From Edaphobacter aggregans (lineage in GTDB: Bacteria > Acidobacteriota > Terriglobia > Terriglobales > Acidobacteriaceae), in NCBI RefSeq assembly GCF_003945235.1, contig NZ_RSDW01000001.1, positions 1,320,001-1,352,000 on the forward strand: a DNA stretch of 32,000 nucleotides, in the 5' to 3' direction. The first letter of the stretch is position 1. Each line of letters begins with the position of its first letter. Below are positions 3,246-30,027 of this stretch, one piece after another. Position numbers and translations under genes: made by a program. The notes beneath the pieces are model-generated. The model was given only the letters and a program-made list of their open reading frames with translations. It did no database searches and was not told where the DNA came from.

Positions 3246-3326
3246 CGTGACAGGCTCTCCATTGTGACAACGCACGAAGCATACATTGCCGAGGCAGCGT
3301 TACCCTAGAAACAAGTTGGCGACGTT

Positions 3327-4868: not shown

Positions 4869-5028
4869 CAATGCGGATTTCGAACGGAACGATTTGAGTA
4901 TCTGGGGTGTAGCTCTTAGGTTCGAACATTTGGCTTCAGCCTTTGAAGCTTGCAAGACAAGCGATGTTCGGAATACATCGCTCATGAAAGAAAAAACAGG
5001 CCGAAACATATTTTTGGAGGGATTTGCA

Positions 5029-8673: not shown

Positions 8674-8695
8674 CGCTGCGATCATGATCAGGGTG

Positions 8696-8727
8696 AAAGG
8701 GGAGCTTCGGCTCCCCTTTTTCTTCTT
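8696..8727 (+). terminator. Intrinsic terminator / attenuating hairpin between TBDR1 and the TPR gene
   Basis: A 10-bp perfect stem, AAAGGGGAGC (8696-8705) paired with GCTCCCCTTT (8710-8719), closed by a TTCG tetraloop and followed by TTCTTCTT. Lies 23 nt after the TBDR1 stop and 29 nt before the TPR start. Confidence 0.7.
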
Positions 8728-8755
8728 CCCATTTACACTCAGGTCTAGGTCGCTG

Positions 8756-9808
8756 ATGAACCGTTTGCGCGTAGCCATCGTTGCTGTTATCGCTCTGTCC
8801 GTTTGCGCGCCCGCATCGCGCGCGCAATTGGTGGACAAACCGAACACGGCACCTGCGAACGCGCAGCAAAATCTCCTCCAGCTACGCCAGATGATCGACC
8901 GGGGACACGCCGCCGAAGCCCTGAAACAGCTCGACACATTGGCCATGCAGCATCCCGTACCTGCGGGCGCTGATACAGTCAGGGGTTTGGCCCTTTATTC
9001 TCAGAATCGCTTCGTTGAAGCTGACGCCGCGTTTGCAAGCGCGTTGAAACTGGACGCACATGACGAAGAAGCAACACAGATGCGCGGGCTCACGTTGTTC
9101 CGTCTCGGTAAACCAACAGATGCGATCCCACTGCTCGAGGCGGAGCATAACTGGACGTCGCAGACGAAGGTCGACCCGAACTATGTGCTGGCGCTGTGTT
9201 ACCTTGATACGCGCCGTTACGACGACGCCAGGCATGCCTTTGCTATGCAGTATGGCTTTGGACCGGACTCGGCGTCGGCATACTTGCTCGCTGCGCGAAT
9301 GTTGTTGCGCCGGGAATATGTTCCGGTGGCACAGGCGTTTGCCAGAAAAGCGCTCGAACTTGATCCTCAACTTCCCCTCGCACATGCCCTGCTCGGTGAA
9401 GTTGCGCTCGCGGGTCAGCATCTCGACGATGCGATTGCGGAGTTTGAAAAAGAACGCACTCGCAATCCGCTAGATGGAGGCGTTTATGACCGACTGGGGG
9501 ATGCCTATACTCGCGCAGGAGACTATACGAAGGCGCAGCAAGCATTGCAGCAGGCTTTGCTCCTGGAGCCGAATTCGACTGGGCCATATATCTTGCTAGG
9601 CAAAGTACTACTGAAGCGGCAGGATCCCGTGGGCGCCGTCATGTATCTGGAACGAGCCGAAAAGATGGACCCCACTAATTACATGACACACAGTCTATTG
9701 GGACAGGCTTACCGAGCGTTAGGTAGAACAGAGGACGCCAGCCGAGAGACTCAAATGGCCCAGAAAATACAATCTGCAAGCGAACCAAAGATTGAGACGG
9801 TTCACTAA
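8756..9808 (+). CDS. Exported tetratricopeptide-repeat (TPR) protein, TBDR1-associated
   Basis: ORF 8441..9808, but the first 105 codons overlap the TBDR1 3' end and the terminator. ATG 8756 gives signal peptide MNRLRVAIVAVIALSVCAPASRAQ. Multiple TPR-like helical pairs (e.g. AFASALKLDAHDEEA, ARKALELDPQLPLAHALLGEVAL, QQALLLEPNSTGPYILLGKVLL, LERAEKMDPTNYMTHSLLGQAY). Confidence 0.8.
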   Translation: MNRLRVAIVAVIALSVCAPASRAQLVDKPNTAPANAQQNLLQLRQMIDRGHAAEALKQLDTLAMQHPVPAGADTVRGLALYSQNRFVEADAAFASALKLDAHDEEATQMRGLTLFRLGKPTDAIPLLEAEHNWTSQTKVDPNYVLALCYLDTRRYDDARHAFAMQYGFGPDSASAYLLAARMLLRREYVPVAQAFARKALELDPQLPLAHALLGEVALAGQHLDDAIAEFEKERTRNPLDGGVYDRLGDAYTRAGDYTKAQQALQQALLLEPNSTGPYILLGKVLLKRQDPVGAVMYLERAEKMDPTNYMTHSLLGQAYRALGRTEDASRETQMAQKIQSASEPKIETVH

Positions 9809-11061: not shown

Positions 11062-11193
11062 CACAAATCCTCCCTGATCCAGCGCCATACGTTAGGCTTC
11101 AGACTTAAGAACGTGCGCTTCGAAATCTCTTGCATATTTTTTGAAGAAATTTTTCTTCGCCCTGCGTCCAAGCGACAGGAGTACCTTGAAGAC

Positions 11194-16523: not shown

Positions 16524-16543
16524 GCTTGCCCCTTGTTTTCCTG

Positions 16544-17947
16544 TTACCAGACGTAGGTCGCCACTGACCCAGCATTAAGCGACGTTGTGAATGACTTTCC
16601 GTGATCGCGAACGCTGAACGTTTGAGGAGTGCCGCTGATGTTCGACACAATAAGCACCTTCTCACCCCTGGGAGTTTTGAAGGCCACGTTGGGAAGCTGC
16701 TCGAGATCGTTAGAACCAATGCGAACAGAGCCGGGACGGACGAACTTCGATGCATGAGCGAGGGTATAAAAGGCAACCTGTCGAGTGACCTTCTCACCGT
16801 CGATGGTGATTGCACCGACGCATCCGGTGCATCCACCATCGTTAGTGTGTGGACCATTCTGGGGATCGGCGGCAAGGTTCCAGAGCAAAATATTTTTGCT
16901 CCAGTTGCGGGAGACACCAATAATGACTCGCGCCACAGGCTTGCTTAAATTGATGTCAGTGCTACCGCTGTGCTCGGTTACAGATTGTTCGGTGAAGTAG
17001 ATGTTCTTCTTGGGAAATTCATCATGGACCTGAGTCATTGCATCTACCTTTCCCCCATACAGATGAAAGCCGGTGCCGTCGATGTATTTGTTAGCTGTAG
17101 GGTCTCTCAGAATGGTGAGCGGATAGAGTGGATGATCGAGGTTGTGGTCGTATAAAACGATCTTGGTTTTGATGCCGGCTTTTTTGAATGCAGGCCCGAG
17201 ATGATTCTTGATGAAGTCCTCCTGCTCCGATTCAAGCATCAGCATACTGGGCGTGTTCTTCTCGTTCAGCGGCTCGTTCTGGATGGTGAGCGTGTCGATG
17301 GGAATGCCTGCAGCCTGCATGCCCTGGATGTACTTCACAAAATAGTCAGCGTAGGCACCGAAGTATTCGGGTTTCAGCACACCACCCCTTGCCACGCCGC
17401 TCGTCTTCATCCACAACGGAGCAGACCACGGAGAGGCGAGGATCTTAATCTTCGGATTGATCGCGAGAATTTCTTTGATAACAGGGATGACGTCGGCATG
17501 GTCTGGATCAAGGCTGAACTTCGCCATACTCTGGTCGGTCTGACCTTCAGGCATGTCGTCATAGGAGTAGACATGGTCATTCATGTCGGAAGCTCCGACA
17601 CTGACACGAATATAGCTGCTCCCAATGTTGTTGCCGTCGTCAGCAAAAAGTTCATGCAGGATTGCCGCACGCGCCGTAGGATTCATGCGCATCAGGAGTT
17701 GCGCGCTGCCACCAGTAACCGCAAAGCCGAAGCCATCAATAGTTTGAAAAGTCTTCGTATCATCAACATCGATGACTGGATCTTTTGCAGGCGAGTTCGT
17801 AAATGGCGTGGGTGGGGATTGCAGCTGAAAGAGAGCTGATCTGTCGGGATTCGTCAGCCAGACTGAAGCATCTTTTTGCGCGTAAGACGAAAGTGGAACC
17901 AATGTTAGTGCAAGGAATGCTAGGGAGTTAACAACCTTCGAGTTCAT
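16544..17947 (-). CDS. Exported GH30 glycoside hydrolase (glucosylceramidase / beta-1,6-glucanase-type)
   Basis: Signal peptide MNSKVVNSLAFLALTLVPLSSYAQ. GH30 hallmarks: FQTIDGFGFAVTGGSAQLL, acid/base motif TIQNEPLNE, nucleophile region NIYFTEQSV. AGGAG lies 5 nt upstream of ATG 17947. Confidence 0.85.
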   Translation of the reverse strand: MNSKVVNSLAFLALTLVPLSSYAQKDASVWLTNPDRSALFQLQSPPTPFTNSPAKDPVIDVDDTKTFQTIDGFGFAVTGGSAQLLMRMNPTARAAILHELFADDGNNIGSSYIRVSVGASDMNDHVYSYDDMPEGQTDQSMAKFSLDPDHADVIPVIKEILAINPKIKILASPWSAPLWMKTSGVARGGVLKPEYFGAYADYFVKYIQGMQAAGIPIDTLTIQNEPLNEKNTPSMLMLESEQEDFIKNHLGPAFKKAGIKTKIVLYDHNLDHPLYPLTILRDPTANKYIDGTGFHLYGGKVDAMTQVHDEFPKKNIYFTEQSVTEHSGSTDINLSKPVARVIIGVSRNWSKNILLWNLAADPQNGPHTNDGGCTGCVGAITIDGEKVTRQVAFYTLAHASKFVRPGSVRIGSNDLEQLPNVAFKTPRGEKVLIVSNISGTPQTFSVRDHGKSFTTSLNAGSVATYVW

Positions 17948-17994
17948 TTAGGCTCCTGAGTGGCAGTACTGCTATTTGCTATATACGTAAATGA

Positions 17995-19218
17995 TCACTG
18001 CGGCACCGATACCGGCTTGAGGCCGAGTGCCTTCAAATAACCTGGGTTCGTGTGAGCGTTATGAAGTTGAATATTTTCGAGTAGGCCAGCGAATGCTTTG
18101 TTTATGACTTCCTGATCCGGCCTTGCTTTTAGGCGCCCTTCAACCTGTCCTGTACCGCGCGGCAGTTTGGCAAAAGCGACGATCTGATCCCACCCTTCCG
18201 GAGGAGTGATGGTAACGACGGCGGATGTCTTGCCCATCTTCTTATAGGGCCAGAATGCCCAGCCAATATTGTGTTTCTCCATCAGAGCAACGAACTGAGC
18301 GATCCACTCATCGTTGTTTTCGCCAGATTCGCCCAGCCAGATCGGAACGTTATATTTATCGCGAAAGTCCAGATATTGCTGGATGACTGGTTCGTCTGTC
18401 TTCGACCAGTACTTATGAAAGGTGTAGGCGGTATTGCTGTCGAAGGGAGAACCAAAGACAGTGAAGTTACCGTCCCACTGAGCCCCGCCAAGAAAAAAGA
18501 TGTGATGCTTGTCGATCTGGCGAACTGCTGTGGATAACTTTTTATAGAGCGGCTCGAGCTTCGGATTCAACGAGGCCAAACGCGGGTAGTGCGGGATCGG
18601 CTCATTCAGAAGATCGTATCCAAGCACAGTGGGATTGTCTTTGTAATGATGTGCGATGCCCTGCCAAATCGCGATGAGATGCGCTTGCTCCTGAGGACTG
18701 TCGTAGAGCCATGGGTATCCGTAACTGTCGTCGATATTTGCGCCGGTCTGACCGCCGGGAGCAGCGTGCATGTCGATAACAACATAAAGGCCTTCCTCGC
18801 GACTCCATTGCAGAACGCGATCTAACAGAGTGAACCCTTCAGCATTATCCGCTTCAAAAAACTTGTAGTGGATTGGGATACGGATCGAATTAAACCCAGC
18901 TTCGCGGAGGAGATGAATGTCCTGCTGAGTAATGTAATTCTCGCGATATTGGCGCCAGAAATCCGCTGCCTTATCGGGACCGAGCAATTCGGTAACGAGG
19001 CCTTCGATCTCACGAGCCGACTGCGGGCCACCCTCGAACATCCACATATAGCCTTCAGGCACGAACCAGTTGCCCAGATTCGTCGCCCGCAGCAGAAGAG
19101 GCTTGCCGTTTCTGTCAACGATCTCCTTTTGTTGCGTGTGCGCAAACTGAGCAGAAAGGCTGGACGGAAGCAGCGAAAGCGACAGCACGGCAAGGCTTAA
19201 CAGACTGCGGAGCGACAT
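17995..19218 (-). CDS. Exported GH5 glycoside hydrolase (cellulase-family beta-glucanase)
   Basis: Signal peptide MSLRSLLSLAVLSLSLLPSSLSAQ. GH5 acid/base motif GYDLLNEP and nucleophile motif IWLGESGEN. GAGGGA lies 7 nt upstream of ATG 19218. Confidence 0.85.
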   Translation of the reverse strand: MSLRSLLSLAVLSLSLLPSSLSAQFAHTQQKEIVDRNGKPLLLRATNLGNWFVPEGYMWMFEGGPQSAREIEGLVTELLGPDKAADFWRQYRENYITQQDIHLLREAGFNSIRIPIHYKFFEADNAEGFTLLDRVLQWSREEGLYVVIDMHAAPGGQTGANIDDSYGYPWLYDSPQEQAHLIAIWQGIAHHYKDNPTVLGYDLLNEPIPHYPRLASLNPKLEPLYKKLSTAVRQIDKHHIFFLGGAQWDGNFTVFGSPFDSNTAYTFHKYWSKTDEPVIQQYLDFRDKYNVPIWLGESGENNDEWIAQFVALMEKHNIGWAFWPYKKMGKTSAVVTITPPEGWDQIVAFAKLPRGTGQVEGRLKARPDQEVINKAFAGLLENIQLHNAHTNPGYLKALGLKPVSVPQ

Positions 19219-19260
19219 GAGTAAATCCCTCGTAGGACGGGTTCGAAAATGAGACTGGTT

Positions 19261-21570
19261 TTACGGCAGAACAGTGAACGTCGTGTGTTGTGTCGCCGAA
19301 GAGTCGGCACCTACCCATAAATCGAAAGGGCCGGGTTCGATCGACCAGCGATGAGTCTGCGGACTCCAGAAGCCAAGGTCGTTCGTGTCGAGCGCGAACG
19401 TAACGGTCTGCTTCTCGCCAGGCTTGAGACTCACCCGACGAAAGGCTTTGAGCTCGCGCGTCGGACGTGACGCGGTGCCGGATCGTTGATGCGTGTAGAG
19501 CTGAACAACCTGATCACCCGCAGCCCCACCCGTGTTTTGCAGCTCGATAGAAACCGCCAACTTAGACCCGGCCTTCACTGAGATAGATTCTGTCTTGAGG
19601 TCATCCATCTTGAAAGTGGTATAGCTAAGACCATAGCCAAAGGGGTAGAGCGGCGCGCTGGAGCCATCCCAATAACGTGTATCGAGAGCATTCGGAATCT
19701 GCGTAAGAGTACGCGCATAGAAGATAGGAACCTGACCCACGCTGCGCGGCCAGCTCACCGGCAGTTTTCCTCCAGGATTCGCATCGCCGAAGAGCAGGTC
19801 CGCAACGGCATTGCCGCCCTCAGTCCCGGGATACCACGCGTCGAGGATAGCCGGCACATGCTCCGAAGCCCACGTAATATCGAGCGGGCGCCCGTTGAGA
19901 AGCACCAGCACGATTGGCTTCCCGGTGGCCACTGCCGCCTCGAGCAACTGCTGCTGACGTCCGGGAAGAGTAAGTGTGGAGCGTGAAGCCCGCTCACCGC
20001 TCATAGTCTGGGCCTCCCCCAAAACCAGCACAGCCACTTGCGATTGTTTGATGAGATCAATGGCATGTGCGAACTCTGCATCACGCTCCGCATCGGTTTT
20101 TAGCACTGGCTTTGGGCTGGGATATTGCGGATCAAAGATCGAAGGCTGAACCCGTTCAATCTCGACGCCCTTAGCCCAGTTGATGGTTGTACCTGATGGG
20201 AAGCGCTTGCGAATGCCTTCAAACACCGTAACAGCGTCCGCAGGATGAGTAGCCAGACTCCATGAGCCAGTAATGTCCGCCTGAGAATCGGCCAGCGGAC
20301 CAATGACGGCAATCGACGTAAGTGACTTGCTGAGAGGGAGCAGCCTGCCCTCATTCCGAAGTAGCACGGCGCTCCGTTCCGCAGCTTTTCGTGCCGACTG
20401 TCGCTGTTCAGGTGTGACGAGCTCAGTCTCGGCCCGCGATGACGCAACGTAAGGACTGGTGAAGAGCCCGAGACGATACTTCGCGGTAAGGATGCGACGC
20501 ACAGCCTCGTCAATCGTGGACTGCTGCACTAATCCCTGCTTCACCGCAGCAGCAAGCTCATCGCGAAAGACGTGGCTCGTCATCTCCATGTCGACGCCAG
20601 CGTTGACCGCACGAACGGCAGCGTCCTGCGGACCAGAAGCAAAGCCATGCGTCGTCAGACTCTTCACGGACTCCCAGTCACTCACCACGAAGCCATCGAA
20701 CTTCCACTTCTCACGCAACACATCGTGAAGCAGGAAGCGGTTGCCTGTAGCCGGTACGCCATTGAGGTCCATGTACGCGGACATCAACGAACCAGAACCC
20801 GCGCGAACAGCCGCCTCGAATGGAGGGAGATATATATTCCACAACTCCTCATCCGAGATGCTCGAAGAATCGTAGTCCCGCCCACCGACCGCAGCACCAT
20901 ACCCAGCGAAGTGCTTCACGCAGGCAAGAATGTGCTCTGGCGACCCGATCTTATCGCCCTGAAAACCACGAATTTGTGCAGCTGCCATCTGCGACCCAAG
21001 ATAGGGATCCTCGCCCGCGCCTTCCATGATGCGTCCCCAGCGAGGATCGCGCGCTATATCGACCATTGGCGCGAACGTCCAGTTAATTCCGACGGCGCTA
21101 GCTTCCTTCGCTGCCATTCGCTGAGCCTCTTCGGCCTGAGCAGGATCCCACGAGGCCGCAAGCGCCAGAGGAACCGGATAGATCGTACGGAATCCATGAA
21201 TCACATCGAATCCAAATATGAGGGGGATGTGAAGTCTTCCCTTCTCGACAGCCAGATGCTGCAGGCGATTGATCTCCTTCGCATCGGTGATGAAGAGAAA
21301 CGAGCCAACCTGCCCTTTCAAAATTCGCTCGTCAGGCGAGACGTCCTCCTTCTGGTTCAGTGGAATCTGGCTCATCTGCCCAAGCTTCTCTTCAAGGGTC
21401 ATCTTCTGCAGCAGATTGTCCACAAAGCGCGCTTCCGTTGTATCGCCCTCCCAGTTTTGTGGCGATTGTGCAAGACAAGAAGCTCCGGACAAAGTAATGG
21501 CAAGGCTGCCGACGAGCAGTCGACGAACCAAGGCGCACCTGGAGTAACAAAATGACATCAGAATCTCCAT
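19261..21570 (-). CDS. bglX: Periplasmic GH3 beta-glucosidase, BglX-like
   Basis: Collinear with E. coli BglX as I recall it: MTLEEKLGQM, KHFAGYGAAVGGRDY, nucleophile motif GFVVSDWES, LLNGRPL, GTEGGNAVADLLFGDANPGGKLPVSWPRSVGQVP, YPFGYGLSYTTF, and a C-terminal Fn3-like domain. Start is ambiguous: ATG 21570 (GGGAG 9 nt upstream), ATG 21558 (GGAG 6 nt upstream), or the longest ORF at 21609. Confidence 0.93.
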   Translation of the reverse strand: MEILMSFCYSRCALVRRLLVGSLAITLSGASCLAQSPQNWEGDTTEARFVDNLLQKMTLEEKLGQMSQIPLNQKEDVSPDERILKGQVGSFLFITDAKEINRLQHLAVEKGRLHIPLIFGFDVIHGFRTIYPVPLALAASWDPAQAEEAQRMAAKEASAVGINWTFAPMVDIARDPRWGRIMEGAGEDPYLGSQMAAAQIRGFQGDKIGSPEHILACVKHFAGYGAAVGGRDYDSSSISDEELWNIYLPPFEAAVRAGSGSLMSAYMDLNGVPATGNRFLLHDVLREKWKFDGFVVSDWESVKSLTTHGFASGPQDAAVRAVNAGVDMEMTSHVFRDELAAAVKQGLVQQSTIDEAVRRILTAKYRLGLFTSPYVASSRAETELVTPEQRQSARKAAERSAVLLRNEGRLLPLSKSLTSIAVIGPLADSQADITGSWSLATHPADAVTVFEGIRKRFPSGTTINWAKGVEIERVQPSIFDPQYPSPKPVLKTDAERDAEFAHAIDLIKQSQVAVLVLGEAQTMSGERASRSTLTLPGRQQQLLEAAVATGKPIVLVLLNGRPLDITWASEHVPAILDAWYPGTEGGNAVADLLFGDANPGGKLPVSWPRSVGQVPIFYARTLTQIPNALDTRYWDGSSAPLYPFGYGLSYTTFKMDDLKTESISVKAGSKLAVSIELQNTGGAAGDQVVQLYTHQRSGTASRPTRELKAFRRVSLKPGEKQTVTFALDTNDLGFWSPQTHRWSIEPGPFDLWVGADSSATQHTTFTVLP

Positions 21571-21660
21571 ATCGGGGGACTCCCGAAATTTGGCAACGAG
21601 GCAGAACAATTTCGCTTGCAGTTCAAACGATTTACTTCTTTGGATTTGACAGCGGCAACC

Positions 21661-21689
21661 AGTTTAGACAAACGTTTGTTTATTGTCTA
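21661..21689 (-). promoter_or_regulatory. Candidate promoter of the GH3-GH5-GH30-fusion operon
   Basis: Read on the minus strand: TAGACA (plus coordinates 21684-21689), 17-nt spacer, TAAACT (21661-21666). The spacer is the operator palindrome. By-eye call. Confidence 0.35.
21665..21682. promoter_or_regulatory. LacI-family operator candidate (TAGACAAACGTTTGTTTA)
   Basis: Near-perfect palindrome centred on CG at 21673/21674, with one mismatch in the outer arm. It has the same core as the two perfect palindromes at 29843-29862 and 29937-29966. It overlaps both divergent promoter candidates. A shifted second copy of the right arm (TTGTCTA) lies at 21683-21689. Confidence 0.65.
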
Positions 21690-21837: not shown

Positions 21838-22890
21838 ATGAAAAAATCGGCCGCGCCTCACCCGCACGAAACGCGTCCCACCAGTCTCAAGATGCTGGCG
21901 GCGTACCTGAACTTAAGTCCGTCCACCATCTCCTACGTCCTGAACGATTCTCCTGGCCGCTCGATTCCAACTGCGACGCGCGACCGGGTGAAGGCCGCCG
22001 CCGCGAAATTCAACTATCGCCCTAGCATGATCGCCCGTACCCTGCAGGGAAAGCGCATGCAGACGATAGGAGTCCTCCTGCCTGAACTAGGCGAGGGATA
22101 CCACTCCCAGGTCCTGAGCGGTGTAGGAGACCTTGTCATCCGGGAAGGTTATTTCTATTTCACCGTTCACCACCGGCACAAAAAAGATCTGATCTCGGCC
22201 TATCCCGATCTTCTACGGTCTCGAGGCGTCGATGGCATCCTGGCAATCGACACGCATTTCGATGCGCCTCTGCCGCTGCCTACGGTCCTGGTGGCTGGAC
22301 ATACGGAACTACCCGGTGTAACAAACGTCATTCTCGATGAAAAACACGCGGCCCGGTTATCCCTGCGCCATCTCCATGAGCTCGGCCATCGCAGGATCGC
22401 CTTCATGCACGGCCAGCCCTTCAGCGCCGACTCGAATGCCCGCTGGGACTCGACGCTCGAGGCAGCGCGCGAACTCGGCCTTGATATCCACGAAGAACTC
22501 ATGATCCATCTCTCCAAGGACTCTCACTCGCCAGAGATCAGCTATCCCGGCATCCGAAAGCTTATCCAAAGCGGAAAACGTTTCTCCGCAGTCCTCTGCT
22601 TCAACGACGTCTCAGCGATGGGTAGCATCCGCGCCTTGCACGAGGCTGGACTCCGCGTCCCCGGCGACGTCTCCATCCTCGGCTTCGACGACATCCAGTC
22701 CTCGGCCTATCAGGTACCGAGCCTCACCACCATCCGGCAGCCTCTTCACAAGATGGGCAGCACCGCCTCCCGCATGCTCCTGAAAAAACTGGCCGGCGAG
22801 ACCACCCCTGAGCTCGTCCGGGTAGAACCCGAGTTAATCGTCCGCGAATCCACCGGTCCCGCCCACTCCCATCCCACAAAAAGACGCTGA
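21838..22890 (+). CDS. LacI/GalR-family transcriptional repressor
   Basis: N-terminal HTH: LKMLAAYLNLSPSTISYVLNDSPGRSIPTATRDRVKAAAAKFNYRPSMIARTLQ. PBP1 effector domain: TIGVLLPEL, AVLCFNDVSAMGSIRALHEAGLRVPGDVSILGFDD, LTTIRQPL. Divergent from the hydrolase operon. Confidence 0.92.
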   Translation: MKKSAAPHPHETRPTSLKMLAAYLNLSPSTISYVLNDSPGRSIPTATRDRVKAAAAKFNYRPSMIARTLQGKRMQTIGVLLPELGEGYHSQVLSGVGDLVIREGYFYFTVHHRHKKDLISAYPDLLRSRGVDGILAIDTHFDAPLPLPTVLVAGHTELPGVTNVILDEKHAARLSLRHLHELGHRRIAFMHGQPFSADSNARWDSTLEAARELGLDIHEELMIHLSKDSHSPEISYPGIRKLIQSGKRFSAVLCFNDVSAMGSIRALHEAGLRVPGDVSILGFDDIQSSAYQVPSLTTIRQPLHKMGSTASRMLLKKLAGETTPELVRVEPELIVRESTGPAHSHPTKRR

Positions 22891-23276: not shown

Positions 23277-25088
23277 TCAATGAGATGTTAGCGAGTCGCC
23301 AGCCGGAGTCAGCGTACCGCCCTGCTTGAGTTGGTAAAACCGGTTGGCTGCAACATTCTCGAAGACCTGTGTGCCGCCATTCGGCCAAAACACCTCGACC
23401 TTGTCGATACGGCTGGCCGAACCGAGCCCGAAGTGCAATCGCAGATCGCTCTGCGAGAGGTAGCTCCCACCGCTCCGCACCTCTCCAAGCTGCTGCTGTT
23501 TGCCCACCGTCACACGGACGCGAGCATTCAGAGCCAATCGGTTGGCCGGGCTGCCTTCCAGATCGAAGCTGACCCAGTGATTCGCCGGATTGCTCTTGGC
23601 CTCCAGAATCATCGGCGAGCCAGCCAGGTTTTCGACGACAATATCGAGTCGGCCCCGATTGAAAAGATCGCCCACGGCAAGCCCGCGACTCACCTGCGGC
23701 GTCCCAACCGCACCGCCAGTCTGCGCACTGACGTCCTTGAAAGTTCCGTCGCGCTGGTTCTGAAAGACAAGCTTCGGTTCGCGATAAGCCGTGCCAAGCT
23801 TGGCGTTATCGACCTGCGGATAGACATGCCCATTGACGAGGATCAGGTCCTGCCATCCTGAGTTGTCGAGATCGACAAACGCATTGCCCCAGCCAACGAA
23901 TGGAACCGTCGGACGCACGATCCCAGCCGAGTGCGAGACGTCAGTGAAGCTCATCCCACCATCGTTGCGGTAGAGCGTCGCATACTCATCGCTGAAGTGA
24001 CTAAGAAAGATGCTCATCCGACCGGTATTCAGGTAGTCACCCAGGGCAACGCCCATGTTGGCCTGCTCGACGCCATCCTCGCTAACAGCGACTCCGGCAT
24101 CCAGCGCAACCTCCTTGAACCGCCCGCCACCCTCATTGTGGTACAGATAGTTCGGCTCACCATCGTTGGCCACAAAAAGATCGAGCTTGCCATCGCCGTC
24201 GAAGTCCGACCAAACCGCACCGAGACCAAAGAATCGCTTAGGATCATCCACTCCAGCCTCTTTGGCAACCTCGGTAAAGGTCCCATCGCCGTTGTTACGG
24301 TAAAGCGTATCAGGATAGCCCTTCAACCCACGCGGCCCGCACTGCACAGCGATGTCATGGTACTCGCACGTCTTGCGCGAGCCAAACAAAGGAAGGTCGT
24401 GCATGTCAAAGTCAACGTAGTGCGGAACAAAGAGGTCGGAGTTGCCATCGCCATCGTAGTCACCAAACGTAACGCCAGTAGCCCATCCAGTGTCCTTGTC
24501 TAAACCCGAAGCTTTGGTGACATCTGTGAAGGTACCATCGCCATTGTTCCTGTAGAGCACGACGCCACCGAAGCAGCTAATGATGAGGTCAGGCCGGCCA
24601 TCATTGTTGTAATCTCCAACGGCTACACCCATAGCCCAGCAAGGATAGCCAACACCAGCCTTATCTGTGACATCGGTAAAGGTGCCGTCGTGGTTGTTAT
24701 GGAACAGAGCGCTCCTGGCCTTCTTACCCTCAAGTGCCATCGCAACATTTGGCGCATTGGTGAAGTAGATATCGAGCCAGCCGTCGCCATCGTAGTCGAT
24801 CAGCGCAACCCCACCGCTCATCGACTCAACAATGTACTTCTGCTCGGAACTTGCGAGGTGCTCGAAGTGAATTCCTGTAGAAGAAGTGATGTCGATAAGT
24901 TGCGAGACTTTGCCAATTACACCGTGATCACTGCTGGAAGCATTACTCTTTGCAGAAGCTTCCTTGGAGGTCACTGCTGATTGCTGTGCTCTTAGGCTCT
25001 GGCCTTGAAATCCGCGCGCGCAAAGCGCAATGCATACCAGAAGCGCCGCGAAGTGCAAGGCTCGCCCAGTGTCGATCTTGGCCGTCAC
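23277..25088 (-). CDS. Exported CRTAC1-family protein (FG-GAP/VCBS beta-propeller repeats plus C-terminal ASPIC/UnbV domain)
   Basis: Repeated Ca-binding-type loops: DYDGDGWLD, DYNNDGRPD, DYDGDGNSD, DFDGDGKLD, DLDNSGWQD. Each follows G-V/A-x-x-G-D. C-terminal UnbV/ASPIC-like segment: GSYLSQSDLRLHFGLG...KVEVFWPNGGTQVFENVAANRFYQL. GTG start at 25088 lies only 2 nt after the upstream TPR stop (TAG, 25091-25093), indicating tight coupling. Confidence 0.85.
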   Translation of the reverse strand: MTAKIDTGRALHFAALLVCIALCARGFQGQSLRAQQSAVTSKEASAKSNASSSDHGVIGKVSQLIDITSSTGIHFEHLASSEQKYIVESMSGGVALIDYDGDGWLDIYFTNAPNVAMALEGKKARSALFHNNHDGTFTDVTDKAGVGYPCWAMGVAVGDYNNDGRPDLIISCFGGVVLYRNNGDGTFTDVTKASGLDKDTGWATGVTFGDYDGDGNSDLFVPHYVDFDMHDLPLFGSRKTCEYHDIAVQCGPRGLKGYPDTLYRNNGDGTFTEVAKEAGVDDPKRFFGLGAVWSDFDGDGKLDLFVANDGEPNYLYHNEGGGRFKEVALDAGVAVSEDGVEQANMGVALGDYLNTGRMSIFLSHFSDEYATLYRNDGGMSFTDVSHSAGIVRPTVPFVGWGNAFVDLDNSGWQDLILVNGHVYPQVDNAKLGTAYREPKLVFQNQRDGTFKDVSAQTGGAVGTPQVSRGLAVGDLFNRGRLDIVVENLAGSPMILEAKSNPANHWVSFDLEGSPANRLALNARVRVTVGKQQQLGEVRSGGSYLSQSDLRLHFGLGSASRIDKVEVFWPNGGTQVFENVAANRFYQLKQGGTLTPAGDSLTSH

Positions 25089-25090
25089 AG

Positions 25091-26281
25091 CTACTTGCTC
25101 ACCTTGTCTTGCTGCTCGTCCTGCTCCGTACCGAGGCGCAGAGCCTTGTAGATCTGCCGCATCTTTTCTTTAATGTCCTTGTACTTTTGGTAGGCTTCCA
25201 GCTCGCGCTTGGCATCATCAGGACGATTCAGTTTGCGATAGACAGTGCTCAGCCGATAGTGCGCAAGAACATTGGCAGGATCGGCAGCAATAACCTGCTC
25301 GAGCAACGCCACAGCAGAGGCAGCCTCGTTCTTCTCGCTATAAACATGGGCCAAGCCAATCGCAGCATCAGCATCGTTAGGAGCGAGCGCCAGCGCCTGC
25401 TTGTAATACGCAGCTGCGCTATCGAGATCGCCCTTATCGGAGGCAAGGTCTCCCAGACGAGCGACGGCCTTTTCGTCGGAGCTGTTGACGGCGACTGCAA
25501 GCTTGTACTGTTCCTCAGCCTCGGCTCGTAGTTTCAAATCTGGCGAAGCATGGAGCGCCTCCGCCAACTCAAAGTGAATCCCCGGCAAGTTCGGATCAGC
25601 AGCCAACGCCTTCCTGTAGTTGGCAATTGCGCCAGCGGTATCCCGCTCGCGTACCAGTTCATGTGCCATCACCTGATACATCTGCCCGGAATCGGACGCT
25701 GCGACTGACAGATCCAGCATCGCCTCTCCCGCCAGATCGGTGTAAATTCTGTAAGCCGCATAAAGAACTCGCGGATCGGTGGGCGCTCCCTGTCGTAGAA
25801 TCGCAACAACGCTCGCAGCCTTTTCCAACTCCTGCGATGCACTATAGATCTCGATTAGTTCGAGTCCCGCCTCTAGACGTATGTTGGGCTCTTGCAACTG
25901 ATCGACGACAGCCTGCAGATCAGCACGCGCCGCGTCCGTTTTGCCAATGCGGCGTTCGCACATGCCAAGCAACGCGCGAATCTTAGTCAGGTCAGGCTTT
26001 TGCTCGATAGCATCACGCAGATGCGGCTCAGCCGCCGAATAGTCCTTTTGAAAGTAAAGCAGGACACCGAGATTTGCCTGTGCGTCCAGGTTATGCGGAT
26101 CAACCGCCAACACCGCAGCAAATTCCTTAATTGCAAGCTCAGGCTTCGTCTCGTTCAGAAGCTGATGCGCTCGCTGTTCATGCAACTGCACCTGCTGCGC
26201 CACCGAGTCAACACCCGCTTGCGCCGCATCCGCAACGACTCCACCCATAGCTAACAACAGAAGAAAGGAAAACACCCGCAT
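25091..26281 (-). CDS. Exported TPR protein, TBDR2-associated
   Basis: Signal peptide MRVFSFLLLLAMGGVVADAAQA. Serial TPR-like units: AIKEFAAVLAVDPHNLDAQANLGVLLY, YRKALAADPNLPGIHFELAEAL, YKQALALAPNDADAAIGLAHVY, LEQVIAADPANVLAHYRLSTVY. Confidence 0.8.
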   Translation of the reverse strand: MRVFSFLLLLAMGGVVADAAQAGVDSVAQQVQLHEQRAHQLLNETKPELAIKEFAAVLAVDPHNLDAQANLGVLLYFQKDYSAAEPHLRDAIEQKPDLTKIRALLGMCERRIGKTDAARADLQAVVDQLQEPNIRLEAGLELIEIYSASQELEKAASVVAILRQGAPTDPRVLYAAYRIYTDLAGEAMLDLSVAASDSGQMYQVMAHELVRERDTAGAIANYRKALAADPNLPGIHFELAEALHASPDLKLRAEAEEQYKLAVAVNSSDEKAVARLGDLASDKGDLDSAAAYYKQALALAPNDADAAIGLAHVYSEKNEAASAVALLEQVIAADPANVLAHYRLSTVYRKLNRPDDAKRELEAYQKYKDIKEKMRQIYKALRLGTEQDEQQDKVSK

Positions 26282-26323
26282 TGCAAGACCGTCCGATCCT
26301 GGTATGGATCGTATCTTAAAGGA

Positions 26324-26356
26324 AGATGGGATGGCGAAGATGTCGCCATCCCATCT
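26324..26356 (-). terminator. Strong intercistronic hairpin between TBDR2 and its TPR gene (partial terminator or processing/stability element)
   Basis: A 14-bp perfect stem, AGATGGGATGGCGA (26324-26337) paired with TCGCCATCCCATCT (26343-26356), with a 5-nt loop. On the transcribed (minus) strand it is followed by TCCTTTAAGAT, which is only moderately U-rich. It lies 9 nt after the TBDR2 stop. Confidence 0.5.
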
Positions 26357-26365
26357 GGTGATTGG

Positions 26366-29300
26366 TTAGAAGGATATGCGTCCGCTAAGTTGCATGGTAC
26401 GACCGCCAACCGTGACTCCCCTGATCGTTGAGGTTCCAGTTGCGATCGTGCCATTCGGATTCACAACAAGCTGAGCAGAGCCCTGTTCGCCTCCTGTAGT
26501 TGGCAGATTGAAGCTCGGGTGGTTGAAGATGTTATTTGCATCTGCACGAAGCTGGAACTTCACCGACTCCCATATTGCAAATGTCTTACCTAGGGAGAAG
26601 TTCACCTGTGAAAGTCCAGGCCCATTCAGGATGTTTCGGCCGGCATTGCCAAAGGTCCCTGGTGCAGGCGCCGCAAACGCAGCCTCATTGAACCACTGGT
26701 TCGTTCCATGGAATGGCCCCTTACTGGAGAGATGAGGATTCCCAATTACGTTGGGATACCACTGTGAGTTTTGAGATTGTGCGAACGAGTTATCCGTCTT
26801 CATAGAGACTGTAAACGGCTGACCGCTCTGAACAACGAGCGTGCCACTCGTCTGCCAGCCACCAATGAGTACATCGAGCAACGTATTGTTATTGACGAAC
26901 GTTCTGCCCTTTCCGAAAGGAAGCTGATAAATAGCGCTTCCCTTGATCGCATTCCTTACATCAAAGTTTGAATTTCCGTAGTTTGCAGAAGGATCGAACG
27001 AGCGTTGATAGTTTAGCGCGCCCGCCCGGCTGCCCCAGCCTGATGAATCCTGTTCGCTCAGGAAGTGGGCCCAGACATAGTTGAAATCAAAGCTCACCCC
27101 ATGGGACAGACGTTTTTGAATACTAGCCTGGAGTGAGTTGTAATTTGAGAGGGCATTGTTGGTGCTGCCGAAGATATTCCCGAATTGCGGAAATGCACGG
27201 AATGCCTTGTCGTTGGCGGACAGTTTGTTCTCCGGGACCTGGTTAATATCAACCGGGAACAGAAGATCGTGGCCATGGCTGCCTACATAGGCCAATTCAA
27301 CTGCCAGGTTGGGATTTAGCTCCTCCTGCACGCTGAGATTCCACTGATAGCTGCCACCTACGGGTGCGTGATACTGGTTGTAGTTGACGTTTGTGCCGTT
27401 GAATGCCGCTGGATCGGTACTGGCAGGAATGTATGGCAGATTGGAGCCGGTACCACCTAAAATCCCGATCGGTGTAACGTTACCGGTATCGCTGACATTA
27501 CCCCTCGTGCCGAAAGCCTGCCCCATGCCTGGCGCATACCTATCCAGGCTCCAGTTGTAGGCATAGAGACCAAATCCACCTCTTATCGTGGCGTTTGGAC
27601 GCATAAGCCATGCGAAGCCGACGCGGGGAAGAATAGTGTCATACACCGGGGCCTGAAGCGTGGTGCGACCATTTGCCTTCGTGGAACCAAACCAGTAGGC
27701 ACCGAGGGTACCTGTGGCGGGGTTTTGCACCGTTGGATCGAAGGTCGCCATATTACCTTTGACTTCGCCCCATCCTGACTGGATCTGATACCTCAGTCCA
27801 AGATTGATTGTCAGGTTCGGCGTTAGTTTGTAGTCGTCCTGGATGAACAACTGCGGAAGTCTCATACGTCCGCCATACTCCGGTGTCACCTGTGCGCTCC
27901 AGTTCTGCATTTGTCCCAGAAGGAAGTCAGCATAAGCGAGGCCGGTAGTGCTATCACCCGGTGTTGACGAGCTATATACGCCCGTGAAGCCCATAGTGCC
28001 GCCGTTTATATTTCCCCAGGCCGTCGAGTTGTCGCGGAAGAAAAGGAACTCTCCTCCAAAATGAAGAATGTGCTTACCGCGAATCAAAGTAACCACGTCG
28101 GAAGGATCGTAGACATGTTCTTTATAAACCGCGTTAATGTTCGATGAGAGGCCGTAGTAGCCGTTGATGTTAATGTTTGGGAAGATGTCCGCCTTCGCAT
28201 ATTGCCATCCCAACTTGGCCGGGAAGCCTTGATTGAGCGATGCGGGAACGAAGAAGTTCAACTGGTTCGTGTAGCCGACCCGGAGTTCGTTAATCACATT
28301 TGGGCTGATCGTCCACACATCTGTGATCTGGGCGTTGTACCGACTGACATCCCCAGATTGGCAGTTAATGGGGCATATACCCTGTCCGTTGCTGTATGCC
28401 GGATTATCGCTCTGCTGAACGGTTGCCGTCAGCCGATTATTTCCTCTGATGTCATAGTCTGCGCGGCCAAAGAATTTTGTGAACGGATTCGCATTCGGGA
28501 TGTTATAGAAAAAGTTGTTCGATGTAAGACCGTTCGCTACTGTTCCCGCTGTATTCGGAGTGGGGTAGTACTTCTGAAGAGCTAGCGCTAGAGGGTCGAA
28601 TCTAGATGCGGGAATCTTGTTGCCCTGGCCATATTCAGCCGCGAAAGAGGTCCGGTCGTAACAAGGGCAAGTTTGAGTGGTTCCGTTTGGAAGGGTTCGC
28701 GTCCCTGTAGCCTGGCTAAGCTTCGTCGTCGCAGGATCGTAAATCGTCGATTGGCCGGTGAAGTCTCCAGTGAGCATTGCTGAGGTAGGAACCGTAGTGA
28801 ATTGAAGTGTAGAAGCCCCAGGATTCACGATTTTGTCATAGTTGAAAAAGAAGAAAAGTTTTCTTTTCAAGACGGGCCCCCCGACAGAAAACCCAAAATT
28901 GTTATAACGAAGACGAGAGACCGCTTTGCTTCTTGGCAGTTGCGCAAAGGCATAGTTTGCTGCGTTGAGCGCGTCGTTTTGCCAGAACTCGTAAACATCG
29001 CCGTGGAATCTGTCCGTGCCGCCCTTGCTGATTTGGTTGAACATGATGCCGCCAATTCCATACTGTGCGGAGAAGTTGGACGCAGCAACTTTCACTTCCT
29101 GAATCGCATCCAGAACCATCACGTCGGCGTTTGCGCTCGAGGGCAGTGTAATAGCGGCGCCATCTGCGAGAACAGTGCTGTACGGTAAATTTCCATTTAC
29201 TGAAATTACCTGGCCAGGATTATTTGCCCCCTGTGAGCCGCCCGCCATCGGAGCACCAGAGCCTCCGGGCAATAGGATCGTGAAGTTCTGCCAGTCCTGT

Positions 29301-29770
29301 CCAACCTGCGGTAATTCCGACAGCTGCCTTGCGCTAAGCGTAGTGGATTGCTCCGCGTTCTCGGTTGCTAGCAGGGGAATGTCGGCCTGCACCACTACCT
29401 GCTCCGTTACAGCACCAACCGTTAGCTGCGCGTTGACAGTGACATTTCCCACGTCAATCGTCAAAGATGACCGAACGTATGTTTGGAATCCTGGTTTGGA
29501 GAACGTAAGTTCGTAGGTTCCGGTGACAATCGAGGATGTGTCGTACAAACCATCTTGGTTCGTAGTAAGAACCTTTGTTACTCCAGTGTTCTTATTAACC
29601 ACCGTTACGGTCACGTCAGGAAGCACGGCGCCGCTCGCATCGGTTACAACACCACGGATATCGCCAGCATTCATACTCTGCGCGAAGCCGACTTCCGTAA
29701 GGCTGAGTCCAACCGCAAAGCTTAACGTTATCGTCAGCAGACTCACTTTCAATTTGCCTCTAAAGCTCAT
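26366..29770 (-). CDS. TonB-dependent outer-membrane receptor with N-terminal carboxypeptidase-regulatory-like domain (TBDR2)
   Basis: ORF 26366..29791. Start placed at ATG 29770 (AGGAGG 4 nt upstream). Signal peptide MSFRGKLKVSLLTITLSFAVGLSLTEVGFAQS. CarboxypepD_reg-like segment: GVVTDASGAVLPDVTVTVVNKNTG...YELTFSKPGFQTY. Plug-like segment: LSARQLSELPQVGQDWQNFTILLPGG. C-terminal OMP signature ...GRISF. Confidence 0.85.
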   Translation of the reverse strand: MSFRGKLKVSLLTITLSFAVGLSLTEVGFAQSMNAGDIRGVVTDASGAVLPDVTVTVVNKNTGVTKVLTTNQDGLYDTSSIVTGTYELTFSKPGFQTYVRSSLTIDVGNVTVNAQLTVGAVTEQVVVQADIPLLATENAEQSTTLSARQLSELPQVGQDWQNFTILLPGGSGAPMAGGSQGANNPGQVISVNGNLPYSTVLADGAAITLPSSANADVMVLDAIQEVKVAASNFSAQYGIGGIMFNQISKGGTDRFHGDVYEFWQNDALNAANYAFAQLPRSKAVSRLRYNNFGFSVGGPVLKRKLFFFFNYDKIVNPGASTLQFTTVPTSAMLTGDFTGQSTIYDPATTKLSQATGTRTLPNGTTQTCPCYDRTSFAAEYGQGNKIPASRFDPLALALQKYYPTPNTAGTVANGLTSNNFFYNIPNANPFTKFFGRADYDIRGNNRLTATVQQSDNPAYSNGQGICPINCQSGDVSRYNAQITDVWTISPNVINELRVGYTNQLNFFVPASLNQGFPAKLGWQYAKADIFPNININGYYGLSSNINAVYKEHVYDPSDVVTLIRGKHILHFGGEFLFFRDNSTAWGNINGGTMGFTGVYSSSTPGDSTTGLAYADFLLGQMQNWSAQVTPEYGGRMRLPQLFIQDDYKLTPNLTINLGLRYQIQSGWGEVKGNMATFDPTVQNPATGTLGAYWFGSTKANGRTTLQAPVYDTILPRVGFAWLMRPNATIRGGFGLYAYNWSLDRYAPGMGQAFGTRGNVSDTGNVTPIGILGGTGSNLPYIPASTDPAAFNGTNVNYNQYHAPVGGSYQWNLSVQEELNPNLAVELAYVGSHGHDLLFPVDINQVPENKLSANDKAFRAFPQFGNIFGSTNNALSNYNSLQASIQKRLSHGVSFDFNYVWAHFLSEQDSSGWGSRAGALNYQRSFDPSANYGNSNFDVRNAIKGSAIYQLPFGKGRTFVNNNTLLDVLIGGWQTSGTLVVQSGQPFTVSMKTDNSFAQSQNSQWYPNVIGNPHLSSKGPFHGTNQWFNEAAFAAPAPGTFGNAGRNILNGPGLSQVNFSLGKTFAIWESVKFQLRADANNIFNHPSFNLPTTGGEQGSAQLVVNPNGTIATGTSTIRGVTVGGRTMQLSGRISF

Positions 29771-29842
29771 ATTGCCTCCTAAATATCTCAAACGACATAG
29801 CCTCTATCGTGGGCATCAGATCGTGAAGCGGGAATCAAAAAC

Positions 29843-29862
29843 ATAAGACAAACGTTTGTCTT
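29843..29862. promoter_or_regulatory. Operator candidate, promoter-distal (start-codon-proximal): 20-bp perfect palindrome TAAGACAAACGTTTGTCTTA
   Basis: Perfect dyad centred on CG 29852/29853, inside the TBDR2 leader 73 nt upstream of ATG 29770. On the mRNA strand it is followed by UGUUUUU (plus coordinates 29836-29842). Confidence 0.65.
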
Positions 29863-29936: not shown

Positions 29937-29966
29937 CAATCTAAGACAAACGTTTGTCTTAGATTG
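29937..29966. promoter_or_regulatory. Operator candidate, promoter-proximal: 30-bp perfect palindrome CAATCTAAGACAAACGTTTGTCTTAGATTG
   Basis: Perfect dyad centred on CG 29951/29952, beginning about 25 nt downstream of the predicted transcription start. Its centre is 99 bp from the other palindrome centre. Confidence 0.65.
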
Positions 29967-29997: not shown

Positions 29998-30027
29998 AAT
30001 ATAGAAAGGATTCGTCAGATATGTCAA
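29998..30027 (-). promoter_or_regulatory. Near-consensus sigma70-type promoter of the TBDR2-TPR-CRTAC1 operon
   Basis: Read on the minus strand: TTGACA (plus coordinates 30022-30027), 18-nt spacer, TATATT (29998-30003). This predicts a leader of roughly 220 nt containing both palindromes. Confidence 0.5.

Follow-up and report, generated by a model that had tools for sequence, protein, structure and literature searches.

We analysed a 32-kb window of the Edaphobacter aggregans genome (the whole stretch of 32,000 nucleotides on contig NZ_RSDW01000001.1), which contains an operon of three genes: a TonB-dependent receptor (TBDR2), an exported tetratricopeptide-repeat (TPR) protein (TPR2) and a β-propeller of the CRTAC1 family. 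The role of this operon in β-glucan use is well supported. The model that we favour is a TonB-dependent transporter (TBDT)-based β-glucan uptake operon, in which a TPR scaffold couples a probably glycan-binding propeller to the transporter; we give this model, taken as a whole, a probability of about 0.45. Its parts do not all stand equally firm: the regulon and the importer role of the locus are highly likely, a physical unit of TPR protein and propeller is likely, and glycan binding by the propeller falls a little short of an even chance. The more specific mechanism, in which these proteins would act as an analogue of SusD, is not supported.

All three genes of the module lie on the minus strand. 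TBDR2 can be read from a TTG codon (26366..29791), although an ATG at 29770 is the likelier start (26366..29770), and it matches the Pfam families CarboxypepD_reg and PF25183. TPR2 (25091..26281) matches Pfam TPR families only, and the CRTAC1-family protein (23277..25088) combines FG-GAP_3 with UnbV_ASPIC. Open reading frame (ORF) calls and Pfam thus bear out the co-directional TBDR–TPR–CRTAC1 layout described in a first-pass annotation of this DNA. The closest database relatives of all three products are Edaphobacter proteins. The propeller gene indeed begins with a GTG codon 2 nt after the TPR2 stop codon, as had been noted, with an AGGTGA-like Shine–Dalgarno sequence upstream. In an independent metagenomic locus, L001, the corresponding gap is 0 nt, and the spacing predicts that the TPR2 and CRTAC1 genes are translationally coupled in both.

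One link to β-glucan comes from the regulation of the module. A sigma-70-like promoter of the TBDR2 operon, assigned by consensus match (TTGACA-18-TATATT, 11/12 positions; 29998..30027, minus strand), precedes both the ATG at 29770 and two exact copies of a LacI-type palindrome, AGACAAACGTTTGTCT, namely operators O1 (29944..29959) and O2 (29846..29861). Both operators are downstream of the promoter, with 98 bp from centre to centre, an arrangement that would allow a repressor to loop the DNA. The third copy differs by one mismatch and is found at 21666..21681 in the divergent spacer between the gene of a LacI-family repressor (21838..22890, plus strand; Pfam LacI and Peripla_BP_1/3) and that of a glycoside hydrolase (GH) of family GH3. 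These three sites in the window compare with 0.07 expected by chance, and three were reached in 0/100 shuffles. The GH3 gene (19261-21609) belongs to a hydrolase operon on the minus strand (13533..21609), together with GH5 (17995-19218), GH30 (16544-17947) and a GH55-like double β-helix protein with a C-terminal SGL (SMP-30/gluconolactonase/LRE-like) propeller (13533-16523), all assigned by Pfam; these genes are also neighbours of the module in orthologous loci. Ten orthologous loci have exact copies of the operator core GACAAACGTTTGTC shortly before the TBDR gene and in the LacI/GH3 spacer, and an operator with at most two mismatches occurs within 450 nt upstream of the TBDR gene in 28/48 loci, against a background of 0.03 per 480 nt. 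The shared operator that had led the first-pass annotation to place the module in a β-glucan hydrolase regulon is therefore present in three copies and kept in orthologous loci. Because the operator is common to both operons and retained in orthologues, the TBDR2–TPR2–CRTAC1 and GH3–GH5–GH30–GH55-like operons, as judged from their sequences, form one conserved LacI regulon. By analogy with the known operator type of its family, the LacI protein is the presumed binder of the three sites.

Within the module, the spacer between TBDR2 and TPR2 contains a stem-loop with a perfect 14-bp stem directly after the TBDR2 stop codon (26324..26356, minus strand). The predicted fold of the spacer RNA has an energy of −37.2 kcal/mol (z = −5.9), and the spacer forms a stem of 8 bp or more in 49/49 orthologous loci, with a mean minimum free energy of −34 compared with −24 for the background. 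The hairpin has no U-tract, and we rejected it as a canonical intrinsic terminator. Since the U-tract is missing, it is more likely to be an attenuator or an mRNA stabiliser that tunes the ratio of TBDR to TPR and CRTAC1 than a full terminator.

The conservation of the module was followed in one genome per species (GTDB), scanned with an alignment of CRTAC1 orthologues; this gave 80 loci with 55-80% identity, and the window proteins were mapped onto all of their ORFs. All 80 have acidobacterial gene content. Three of the contigs (L021, L027 and L072) come from metagenome-assembled genomes labelled Acetobacteraceae, Saccharimonadales and Sphingomonas, probably as a result of binning contamination. 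Synteny outside this genome, on which the first-pass annotation had let its reading depend, is present: in 54/80 loci a TBDR–TPR pair precedes the CRTAC1 orthologue on its own strand, and GH3, GH5, GH30 or GH55-like genes are found within 10 kb in 57/80. The three genes are adjacent and co-directional in 45 loci, and nine show the order TBDR–TPR–GH55like(–GH30)–CRTAC1. Nine more have CRTAC1–TBDR(–TPR) with a TBDR of a different subfamily, four have TPR–CRTAC1 cut by a contig end, four have TPR–CRTAC1 without an adjacent TBDR, four have GH55like–CRTAC1, one has TBDR–CRTAC1 and four have other arrangements. In 46/80 loci a LacI gene is no more than about 10 kb away from the CRTAC1 orthologue; in L001 the order is TBDR–TPR–CRTAC1 / LacI / GH3–GH30. 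Chance adjacency of the three genes was rejected on the strength of the synteny in 80 species. Paralogous modules accompanied by other sets of carbohydrate-active enzymes (CAZymes; GH28/GH88/esterase, GH172, GH27) are carried by plasmids of Granulicella tundricola and Acidisarcina polymorpha, where the arrangements include TBDR–CRTAC1–esterase–GH30–GH28, GH172 / TBDR–CRTAC1–TPR / LacI, TBDR–hypothetical–TPR–CRTAC1–CRTAC1, and CRTAC1–TPR adjoining GH88. A duplicated core with changing CAZyme sets is, by analogy, the pattern of the SusC/SusD pairs in the polysaccharide-utilisation loci (PULs) of Bacteroidota.

TBDR2 itself is, from its sequence features, a TBDT-like outer-membrane protein of the Oar/SusC architecture with a divergent plug. 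Starting from the ATG at 29770, it begins MSFRGKLKV… and its signal peptide ends in GFAQ. Its N-terminal extension matches CarboxypepD_reg (PF13620, E 7e-17, residues 45-123) and its barrel matches OMP_b-brl_4 (PF25183, E 1e-210, residues 255-1117). The plug (PF07715) reaches only E 0.019 and 15.9 bits with the single sequence, below the 23.9-bit cut-off; with a profile built from 14 homologues, the YncD/PqqU plug is matched at E 1.3e-3. Searched against the PDB, the TBDR2 sequence found nothing usable even at E<=10; only the profile reached TBDT plugs. NCBIfam holds no model for TBDR2 or for CRTAC1. Right after the N-terminal extension, a motif EQVVVQA can be read by eye, which resembles the ETVVVTA-type consensus of TonB boxes.

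The partner encoded directly downstream of TBDR2 is not SusD-like; by its sequence and model it is predicted to be a plain TPR superhelix that is Sec-exported and non-lipidated. SusD contains four TPR units and a variable glycan-binding region, has a mass of ~65 kDa and carries a lipidated N-terminal cysteine (PMC13543919). TPR2 has 396 aa (~41 kDa when mature), and its AlphaFold2 model (predicted local distance difference test, pLDDT, 89) consists of 19 helices that make up about nine TPRs and a long C-terminal capping helix, and nothing else; the model shows no variable glycan-binding region. The 50 best Foldseek matches of this model in the PDB are all TPR solenoids (SPINDLY, OGT, designed consensus TPRs), with no SusD among them. 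None of the SusD families of Pfam (PF07980, PF14322, PF12771) matches TPR2 at E<=0.01, and hhalign of the TPR2 profile with a Hymenobacter SusD gives a probability of 0.1%. NCBIfam returned sub-threshold generic TPR matches only; among the weak matches are LcrH/SycD-type models (NCBIfam) and BamD/BepA/PilW-type and Slam-type TPR models. A lipobox is found in 0/120 TPR2 orthologues, all of which have AxA/AQS-type signal peptidase I sites, so that the Sec-type, non-lipobox signals described for the window proteins hold across orthologues. On these grounds (hhalign, Pfam, fold and lack of a lipobox), TPR2 was rejected as a diverged homologue of SusD. What it shares with SusD is its gene position directly downstream of the TBDT, in the window and in 54/80 loci. 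It had also been claimed that the locus has no SusD/RagB-like gene, and this holds for the whole window, whose large ORFs all fall in other families or have no Pfam family; there is accordingly no SusD-family gene in the 32 kb and no adjacent susC/susD pair of the kind that defines Bacteroidota PULs. The window does contain a second pair, TBDR1–TPR1 (4894..9808, plus strand; TBDR1 4894-8673, TPR1 8753-9808), without a CRTAC1 gene. TBDR1 is 28% identical to TBDR2 and also touches PF00593 (E 7e-5), while TPR1 is colinear with TPR2 and 34% identical over 176 aa (E 3e-16). The TBDR–TPR unit is thus itself duplicated, as this pair shows.

The third protein, of 603 aa, is composed of a signal peptide, a low-complexity linker, an FG-GAP β-propeller and a C-terminal UnbV_ASPIC domain. 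FG-GAP_3 matches in five stretches (E 3e-48) and UnbV_ASPIC at residues 519-585 (E 5e-24). The five calcium-binding loops announced by the first-pass annotation can be found, four of them canonical (Dx[DN]xDG at residues 98, 159, 210 and 295) and the fifth a degenerate DLDNSG at 406; the propeller is predicted to bind Ca2+. CRTAC1 orthologues carry Sec signals, and the cysteine in the N-terminal signal region is not conserved. The acidobacterial subfamily keeps the polar motifs YIVES, CGPRGL, SHFSDEY and NGHVYPQVD. In phmmer searches, the PDB sequences related to the protein are limited to murine CRTAC1 (9etn, E 2e-16) and integrin alpha-6. The structural model was built from a shallow alignment (12 sequences at 75-88% identity) and is moderate (pLDDT 66, pTM 0.64). 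Its best Foldseek match is again murine CRTAC1 (9etn, E 5e-19, TM about 0.5), followed by the fungal FG-GAP N-acetylglucosamine (GlcNAc) lectins AAL2, PVL and PAL (E about 1e-11); weaker matches are aldos-2-ulose dehydratase, the Vibrio exopolysaccharide-binding Bap1, the teichuronic-acid-binding UmbA4 and integrin alpha. The CRTAC1/ASPIC/UnbV family is large, with 12,572 clusters at 50% identity at E<=1e-30 and 44,807 at E<=1e-10, counted among 1.84 billion representatives.

Gene fusions designate the propeller as the clearest independently evidenced partner of the TPR protein, as far as sequences can tell. Among the best 150 CRTAC1-family representatives, 33 are 661-1300 aa long, and in 20 of these 33 TPR repeats precede or follow the FG-GAP/UnbV_ASPIC unit within one polypeptide. 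Lipoprotein signals are frequent among the fusions, and two CRTAC1-family representatives carry sorting tails of the type IX secretion system (T9SS). The fusions are a Rosetta-stone indication that TPR and propeller may form one physical unit in the envelope. We also compared the identities of orthologues to the three window proteins in 46 species (bootstrap 95% intervals). The partial correlation between TBDR and TPR given CRTAC1 is 0.62 [0.42 to 0.76] and that between TPR and CRTAC1 given TBDR is 0.57 [0.26 to 0.76], compared with 0.11 [-0.17 to 0.42] between TBDR and CRTAC1 given TPR. Co-variation with the TPR protein in the middle would fit a scaffold that touches both partners, a weak line of evidence because the species are not independent.

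CRTAC1-like propellers also accompany TBDTs in other phyla. We surveyed annotated plasmids by tblastn and then looked at nine neighbourhoods. In Bacteroidota, CRTAC1-like 'VCBS repeat' proteins of about 1100 aa directly follow SusC–SusD in 8/8 loci examined (L082, L083, L091 and L095-L099, from Hymenobacter, Chondrinema (two), Hydrobacter, Pseudarcicella, Ferruginibacter and two metagenomes). A PAP2/vanadium-haloperoxidase-like gene lies downstream in seven of the eight, immediately in six and two genes further in Hymenobacter. The cassette (ECF sigma/FecR)–SusC–SusD–CRTAC1-like lipoprotein–PAP2/VCPO_2nd (ECF, extracytoplasmic function; L082, L091, L095-L099) is highly conserved and apparently uncharacterised; database names of its propeller are 'VCBS repeat-containing', 'RNA-binding protein' and 'enediyne biosynthesis protein E4'. 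At least 87/120 Bacteroidota CRTAC1-like proteins have lipobox-like signals. For the Hymenobacter volaticus VCBS gene, the annotated start MTANKD is probably wrong (L082 8986-9063), and an in-frame upstream start yields MRVWRL…LAGC, a lipoprotein signal like those of its homologues. The single locus examined in Gemmatimonadota (Gemmatirosa, 1/1) reads LacI–SusC-like–SusD–CRTAC1-like. The propeller is thus, on the evidence of these gene orders, a recurrent third component of TBDT cassettes that co-exists with SusD, and because both co-exist in other phyla it was rejected as a substitute for SusD. The family also occurs in sugar loci without a TBDT: in roseobacters, the CRTAC1 gene overlaps that of a ROK regulator beside xylFGH, and in a haloarchaeon it stands among sugar genes. 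As the sugar association holds without a TBDT, this argues for an intrinsic carbohydrate-related role of the propeller. The SusD analogy drawn in the first-pass annotation therefore survives in part. The Terriglobia TPR gene does stand in the susD slot of a homologous TBDT–X–propeller cassette, a real and purely positional support; homology, fold and lipobox speak against TPR2 as a SusD, and elsewhere the propeller occurs together with SusD.

The model that we propose runs as follows. An inducer would free the operators of LacI, and the GH3–GH5–GH30–GH55-like enzymes and TBDR2–TPR2–CRTAC1 would be made together. Secreted and periplasmic β-glucanases of the GH operon would cleave what is probably a β-1,3/1,6-glucan, and TBDR2 would import the gluco-oligosaccharides with TonB energy, as family knowledge and locus context suggest. 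TPR2, as a scaffold for contacts between proteins, would bind the propeller and link it with the transporter; the working part would be the propeller (Ca2+-binding, FG-GAP), most likely a lectin-like glycan binder. Because their signals are of the signal-peptidase-I type and they have no lipid anchor, the default location of TPR2 and CRTAC1 would be the periplasmic side, where they could receive or hand on imported oligosaccharides; release to the surface is possible. The TPR2–CRTAC1 pair would then be the positional counterpart of SusD and the CRTAC1-like lipoprotein in Bacteroidota and Gemmatimonadota. A bolder version, which we consider doubtful, is a 'utilisome' of Terriglobia, which would lack SusD; here the TPR protein, without homology to SusD, would have taken its role as the obligate partner of the transporter and would recruit CRTAC1 as the glycan-capturing subunit. 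If so, Acidobacteriota would have in TBDR–TPR–CRTAC1 their counterpart of SusC–SusD–surface glycan-binding protein, the CRTAC1-like propeller would be an ancient third component that TBDT uptake machines share across phyla, and the CRTAC1/ASPIC/UnbV family would gain its first function.

Several points weigh against the favoured model. The identity correlations rest on species that are not independent, and phylogeny confounds them. Some Oar-type TBDRs in these genomes have no TPR or CRTAC1 neighbour and are followed instead by a peptidase, an MFS (major facilitator superfamily) transporter or an esterase, and TBDR1–TPR1 has no propeller gene. The plug and TonB box of TBDR2 are weakly supported by sequence, and the similarity of CRTAC1 to lectins is one of predicted fold, on a model of pLDDT 66. 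The residues invariant across the family are the Asp and Gly of the Ca2+ loops only, which, among such distant homologues, is neutral on a binding site. Finally, haem or redox proteins recur with CRTAC1 paralogues (L085 10727-13069, P0358, L088 2822-4015, L090 9426-10778, L083 9439-10962), a hint that at least some of these may be catalysts rather than binders. Among the neighbours are cytochrome c peroxidase or haloperoxidase-like genes, a multihaem cytochrome and one CGSCH-motif protein, a multihaem cytochrome is fused to the TPR partner of a CRTAC1 paralogue in G. tundricola, and in P0358 a multihaem cytochrome domain (9xCxxCH) is fused to the propeller itself. Hydrazine-synthase-like haem proteins also flank a CRTAC1 gene (PMC12758564).

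This company leads to the alternative that CRTAC1 is an enzyme, a lyase, hydrolase, dehydratase or redox-linked modifier of the glycan or its decoration, with TPR2 as its scaffold or assembly partner and the TBDR importing the products. The recurrence of haem, peroxidase or vanadium-haloperoxidase-like genes beside or fused to family members (PMC12758564 included) would fit such a role, as would the position of CRTAC1 between GH genes (GH55like–CRTAC1–GH30) in nine loci, the TBDT-free sugar clusters of roseobacters and the haloarchaeon, the presence of the propeller enzyme aldos-2-ulose dehydratase among the structural neighbours and the polar motifs of the acidobacterial subfamily. Yet no catalytic-looking residue is conserved family-wide, searches of Pfam, NCBIfam and PDB sequences linked the protein to none of the CAZy families, a redox partner is missing from the window operon, and the nearest structures outside CRTAC1 are lectins; we regard an enzymatic role as unlikely, though worth keeping in view. 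One may also wonder whether TPR2 and/or the propeller are surface-exposed and cap TBDR2 from the outside to capture glycan, as SusD does. The position of the TPR gene is exactly that of susD in the Bacteroidota and Gemmatimonadota cassettes, TBDR2 has the SusC-type N-terminal extension, TBDR–TPR pairs duplicate as units and co-vary, and SusD is itself built on four TPR units (PMC13543919). Against this, TPR2 is a nine-repeat solenoid without the variable glycan-binding half of SusD, its orthologues have no lipobox (0/120), no SusD family of Pfam matches it and the hhalign probability is 0.1%; the acidobacterial propellers lack the lipid anchor carried by at least 87/120 Bacteroidota homologues, and the gene order varies, being TBDR–CRTAC1–TPR in Acidisarcina. 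To our knowledge, there is also no route for non-lipidated Sec substrates to the acidobacterial surface, and such an external cap seems improbable.

If TPR2 instead served TBDR2 in a general way, by helping its barrel to assemble, by coupling it to TonB or by binding its N-terminal extension, it would have no role with the substrate and CRTAC1 would be an independent passenger. TPR proteins do act in envelope assembly, TPR2 is a canonical peptide-binding-type solenoid with weak BamD/BepA/PilW-type and Slam-type matches, and TBDR–TPR pairs without CRTAC1 exist (TBDR1–TPR1, L063, L070, L075). A passenger would not be expected to be so closely tied to the TPR protein: fusions of the two dominate the multidomain family members (20/33), their genes are tightly coupled in translation, their co-variation persists given the TBDR, and they pair away from TBDRs (L085, L086, L060), so that this reading appears quite improbable. 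Least probable, in our view very much so, is transport in the opposite direction, in which TBDR2 would move periplasmic CRTAC1 outwards with TPR2 as a periplasmic chaperone or adaptor. CRTAC1 and TPR2, Sec-exported and non-lipidated, would start in the periplasm, TPR proteins are common as secretion chaperones (TPR2 has the weak LcrH/SycD-type NCBIfam matches) and TPR–CRTAC1 fusions exist. A surface location of the family is plausible, given the lipoprotein signals of at least 87/120 Bacteroidota members and the T9SS tails of two representatives. In Bacteroidota, lipoprotein signals and T9SS sorting tails usually mean surface display. The precedent would be Oar of Myxococcus xanthus, whose architecture TBDR2 shares and which is needed for secretion of the protease PopC (PMC6434023). 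However, this architecture is also that of SusC importers and of 28% of all TBDTs (PMC6434023), the operon resembles importer loci in its regulation by sugar and its place among hydrolases, no cargo gene accompanies TBDR1–TPR1, homologues of CRTAC1 are also found where there is no TBDT, and a single case of TBDT-dependent secretion is known.

The remainder of the window surrounds these operons. The TBDR1–TPR1 pair adjoins an alpha-glucan-type cluster, all on the minus strand and assigned by Pfam, that comprises a GH13 alpha-amylase-family enzyme (16-1866), an MFS sugar porter (1917-3275) and a regulator with a GntR helix-turn-helix and a LacI-type sensor domain (3327-4520). On the other side of the pair lie an ARPP-1 domain protein (9838-11088, minus strand; Pfam) and, adjoining it, two overlapping ORFs on the plus strand (11113-12168 and 12165-13454) with no Pfam family at E<=1e-5, which by eye have the look of a sigma/anti-sigma pair. 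Directly upstream of the module promoter, a von Willebrand factor A (VWA)-domain protein of an acidobacterial family (30214-31974, minus strand; TIGR03436, E 1e-51) appears to be a separate transcription unit. The 32 kb contain no tonB or exbBD genes, and neither Rfam nor tRNA scans found anything in the window.

Carbohydrate loci built around a TBDT are already well known, and so are LacI regulons. In a full-text literature search, no paper tied CRTAC1, ASPIC or VCBS proteins to TBDTs or SusD, and the searchable literature yielded no functional work on acidobacterial TBDT loci, on bacterial CRTAC1/UnbV proteins or on TBDR-linked TPR proteins, in line with the earlier statement that the latter two have no demonstrated function. 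The Terriglobia TPR–CRTAC1 accessory pair and the cross-phylum TBDT–(SusD or TPR)–CRTAC1-like cassette thus appear undescribed in that literature. Acidobacteriota rank with the most abundant bacteria of soil and have a major part in the degradation of polysaccharides from plants and fungi, and their glycan uptake without SusD is essentially undescribed. The locus also ties the CRTAC1/ASPIC/UnbV family, to which a protein of human plasma and cartilage belongs, to the TonB-dependent uptake of nutrients in three phyla, a link that is directly testable in culturable Edaphobacter and Granulicella strains.

Among known systems, the carbohydrate utilisation containing TBDT (CUT) loci of Proteobacteria (Xanthomonas, Caulobacter) likewise combine a SusD-less TBDT with GHs, a LacI/GntR-type repressor and inner-membrane sugar transporters. 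Their TBDTs, unlike TBDR2, are usually without a CarboxypepD_reg extension, and we know of no conserved TPR or CRTAC1-type accessory pair in them. Oar of M. xanthus has the same domain architecture as TBDR2, and the likeness is one of architecture: a signal peptide, a CarboxypepD_reg extension, a TonB box and plug and a large barrel, an order common to SusC (PMC6434023). Oar is implicated in the export of a protein (PopC) and not in nutrient import, and a TPR or CRTAC1 partner is not mentioned for it (PMC6434023). Vertebrate CRTAC1/ASPIC (murine 9etn) and UnbV (E4) of enediyne clusters belong to the same family as the window propeller, with the FG-GAP propeller, Ca2+ loops and UnbV_ASPIC domain, and all are secreted. 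The vertebrate protein, of plasma or the extracellular matrix, has an additional EGF-like tail, UnbV is found in polyketide clusters, and both are without TBDT, TPR or CAZyme context and offer no defined biochemical activity that could be transferred to the window protein. The fungal lectins PVL, AAL2 and PAL (2bwr, 4tqj, 5mb4) are, like CRTAC1, propellers of the FG-GAP type, seven-bladed and containing Ca2+; they have no UnbV_ASPIC domain and share 16-19% identity with CRTAC1, so that, with a CRTAC1 model of pLDDT 66, their likeness is one of predicted fold and does not extend to their GlcNAc sites as far as the model can show.

A close parallel is provided by the SusC/SusD PULs of Bacteroidota. 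In both, a CarboxypepD_reg TBDT comes first, a partner gene lies directly downstream and a homologous FG-GAP/UnbV_ASPIC propeller is third; both are linked to CAZymes and a dedicated regulator, and both exist in many duplicates, each with its own enzyme set. They differ in the partner, here a TPR solenoid of 396 aa in place of the ~65 kDa SusD with its four TPR units, variable glycan-binding region and lipid anchor, and in the propeller, here single, of 603 aa and non-lipidated, compared with about 1100 aa and lipoprotein signals in Bacteroidota. Moreover, the window module has no PAP2/VCPO gene, unlike the Bacteroidota cassettes, and is controlled by a LacI protein instead of their ECF sigma/anti-sigma pair. 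Conserved and paralogously expanded, the TBDR–TPR–CRTAC1 trio could mark the polysaccharide-utilisation loci of Acidobacteriota as susC/susD does those of Bacteroidota.

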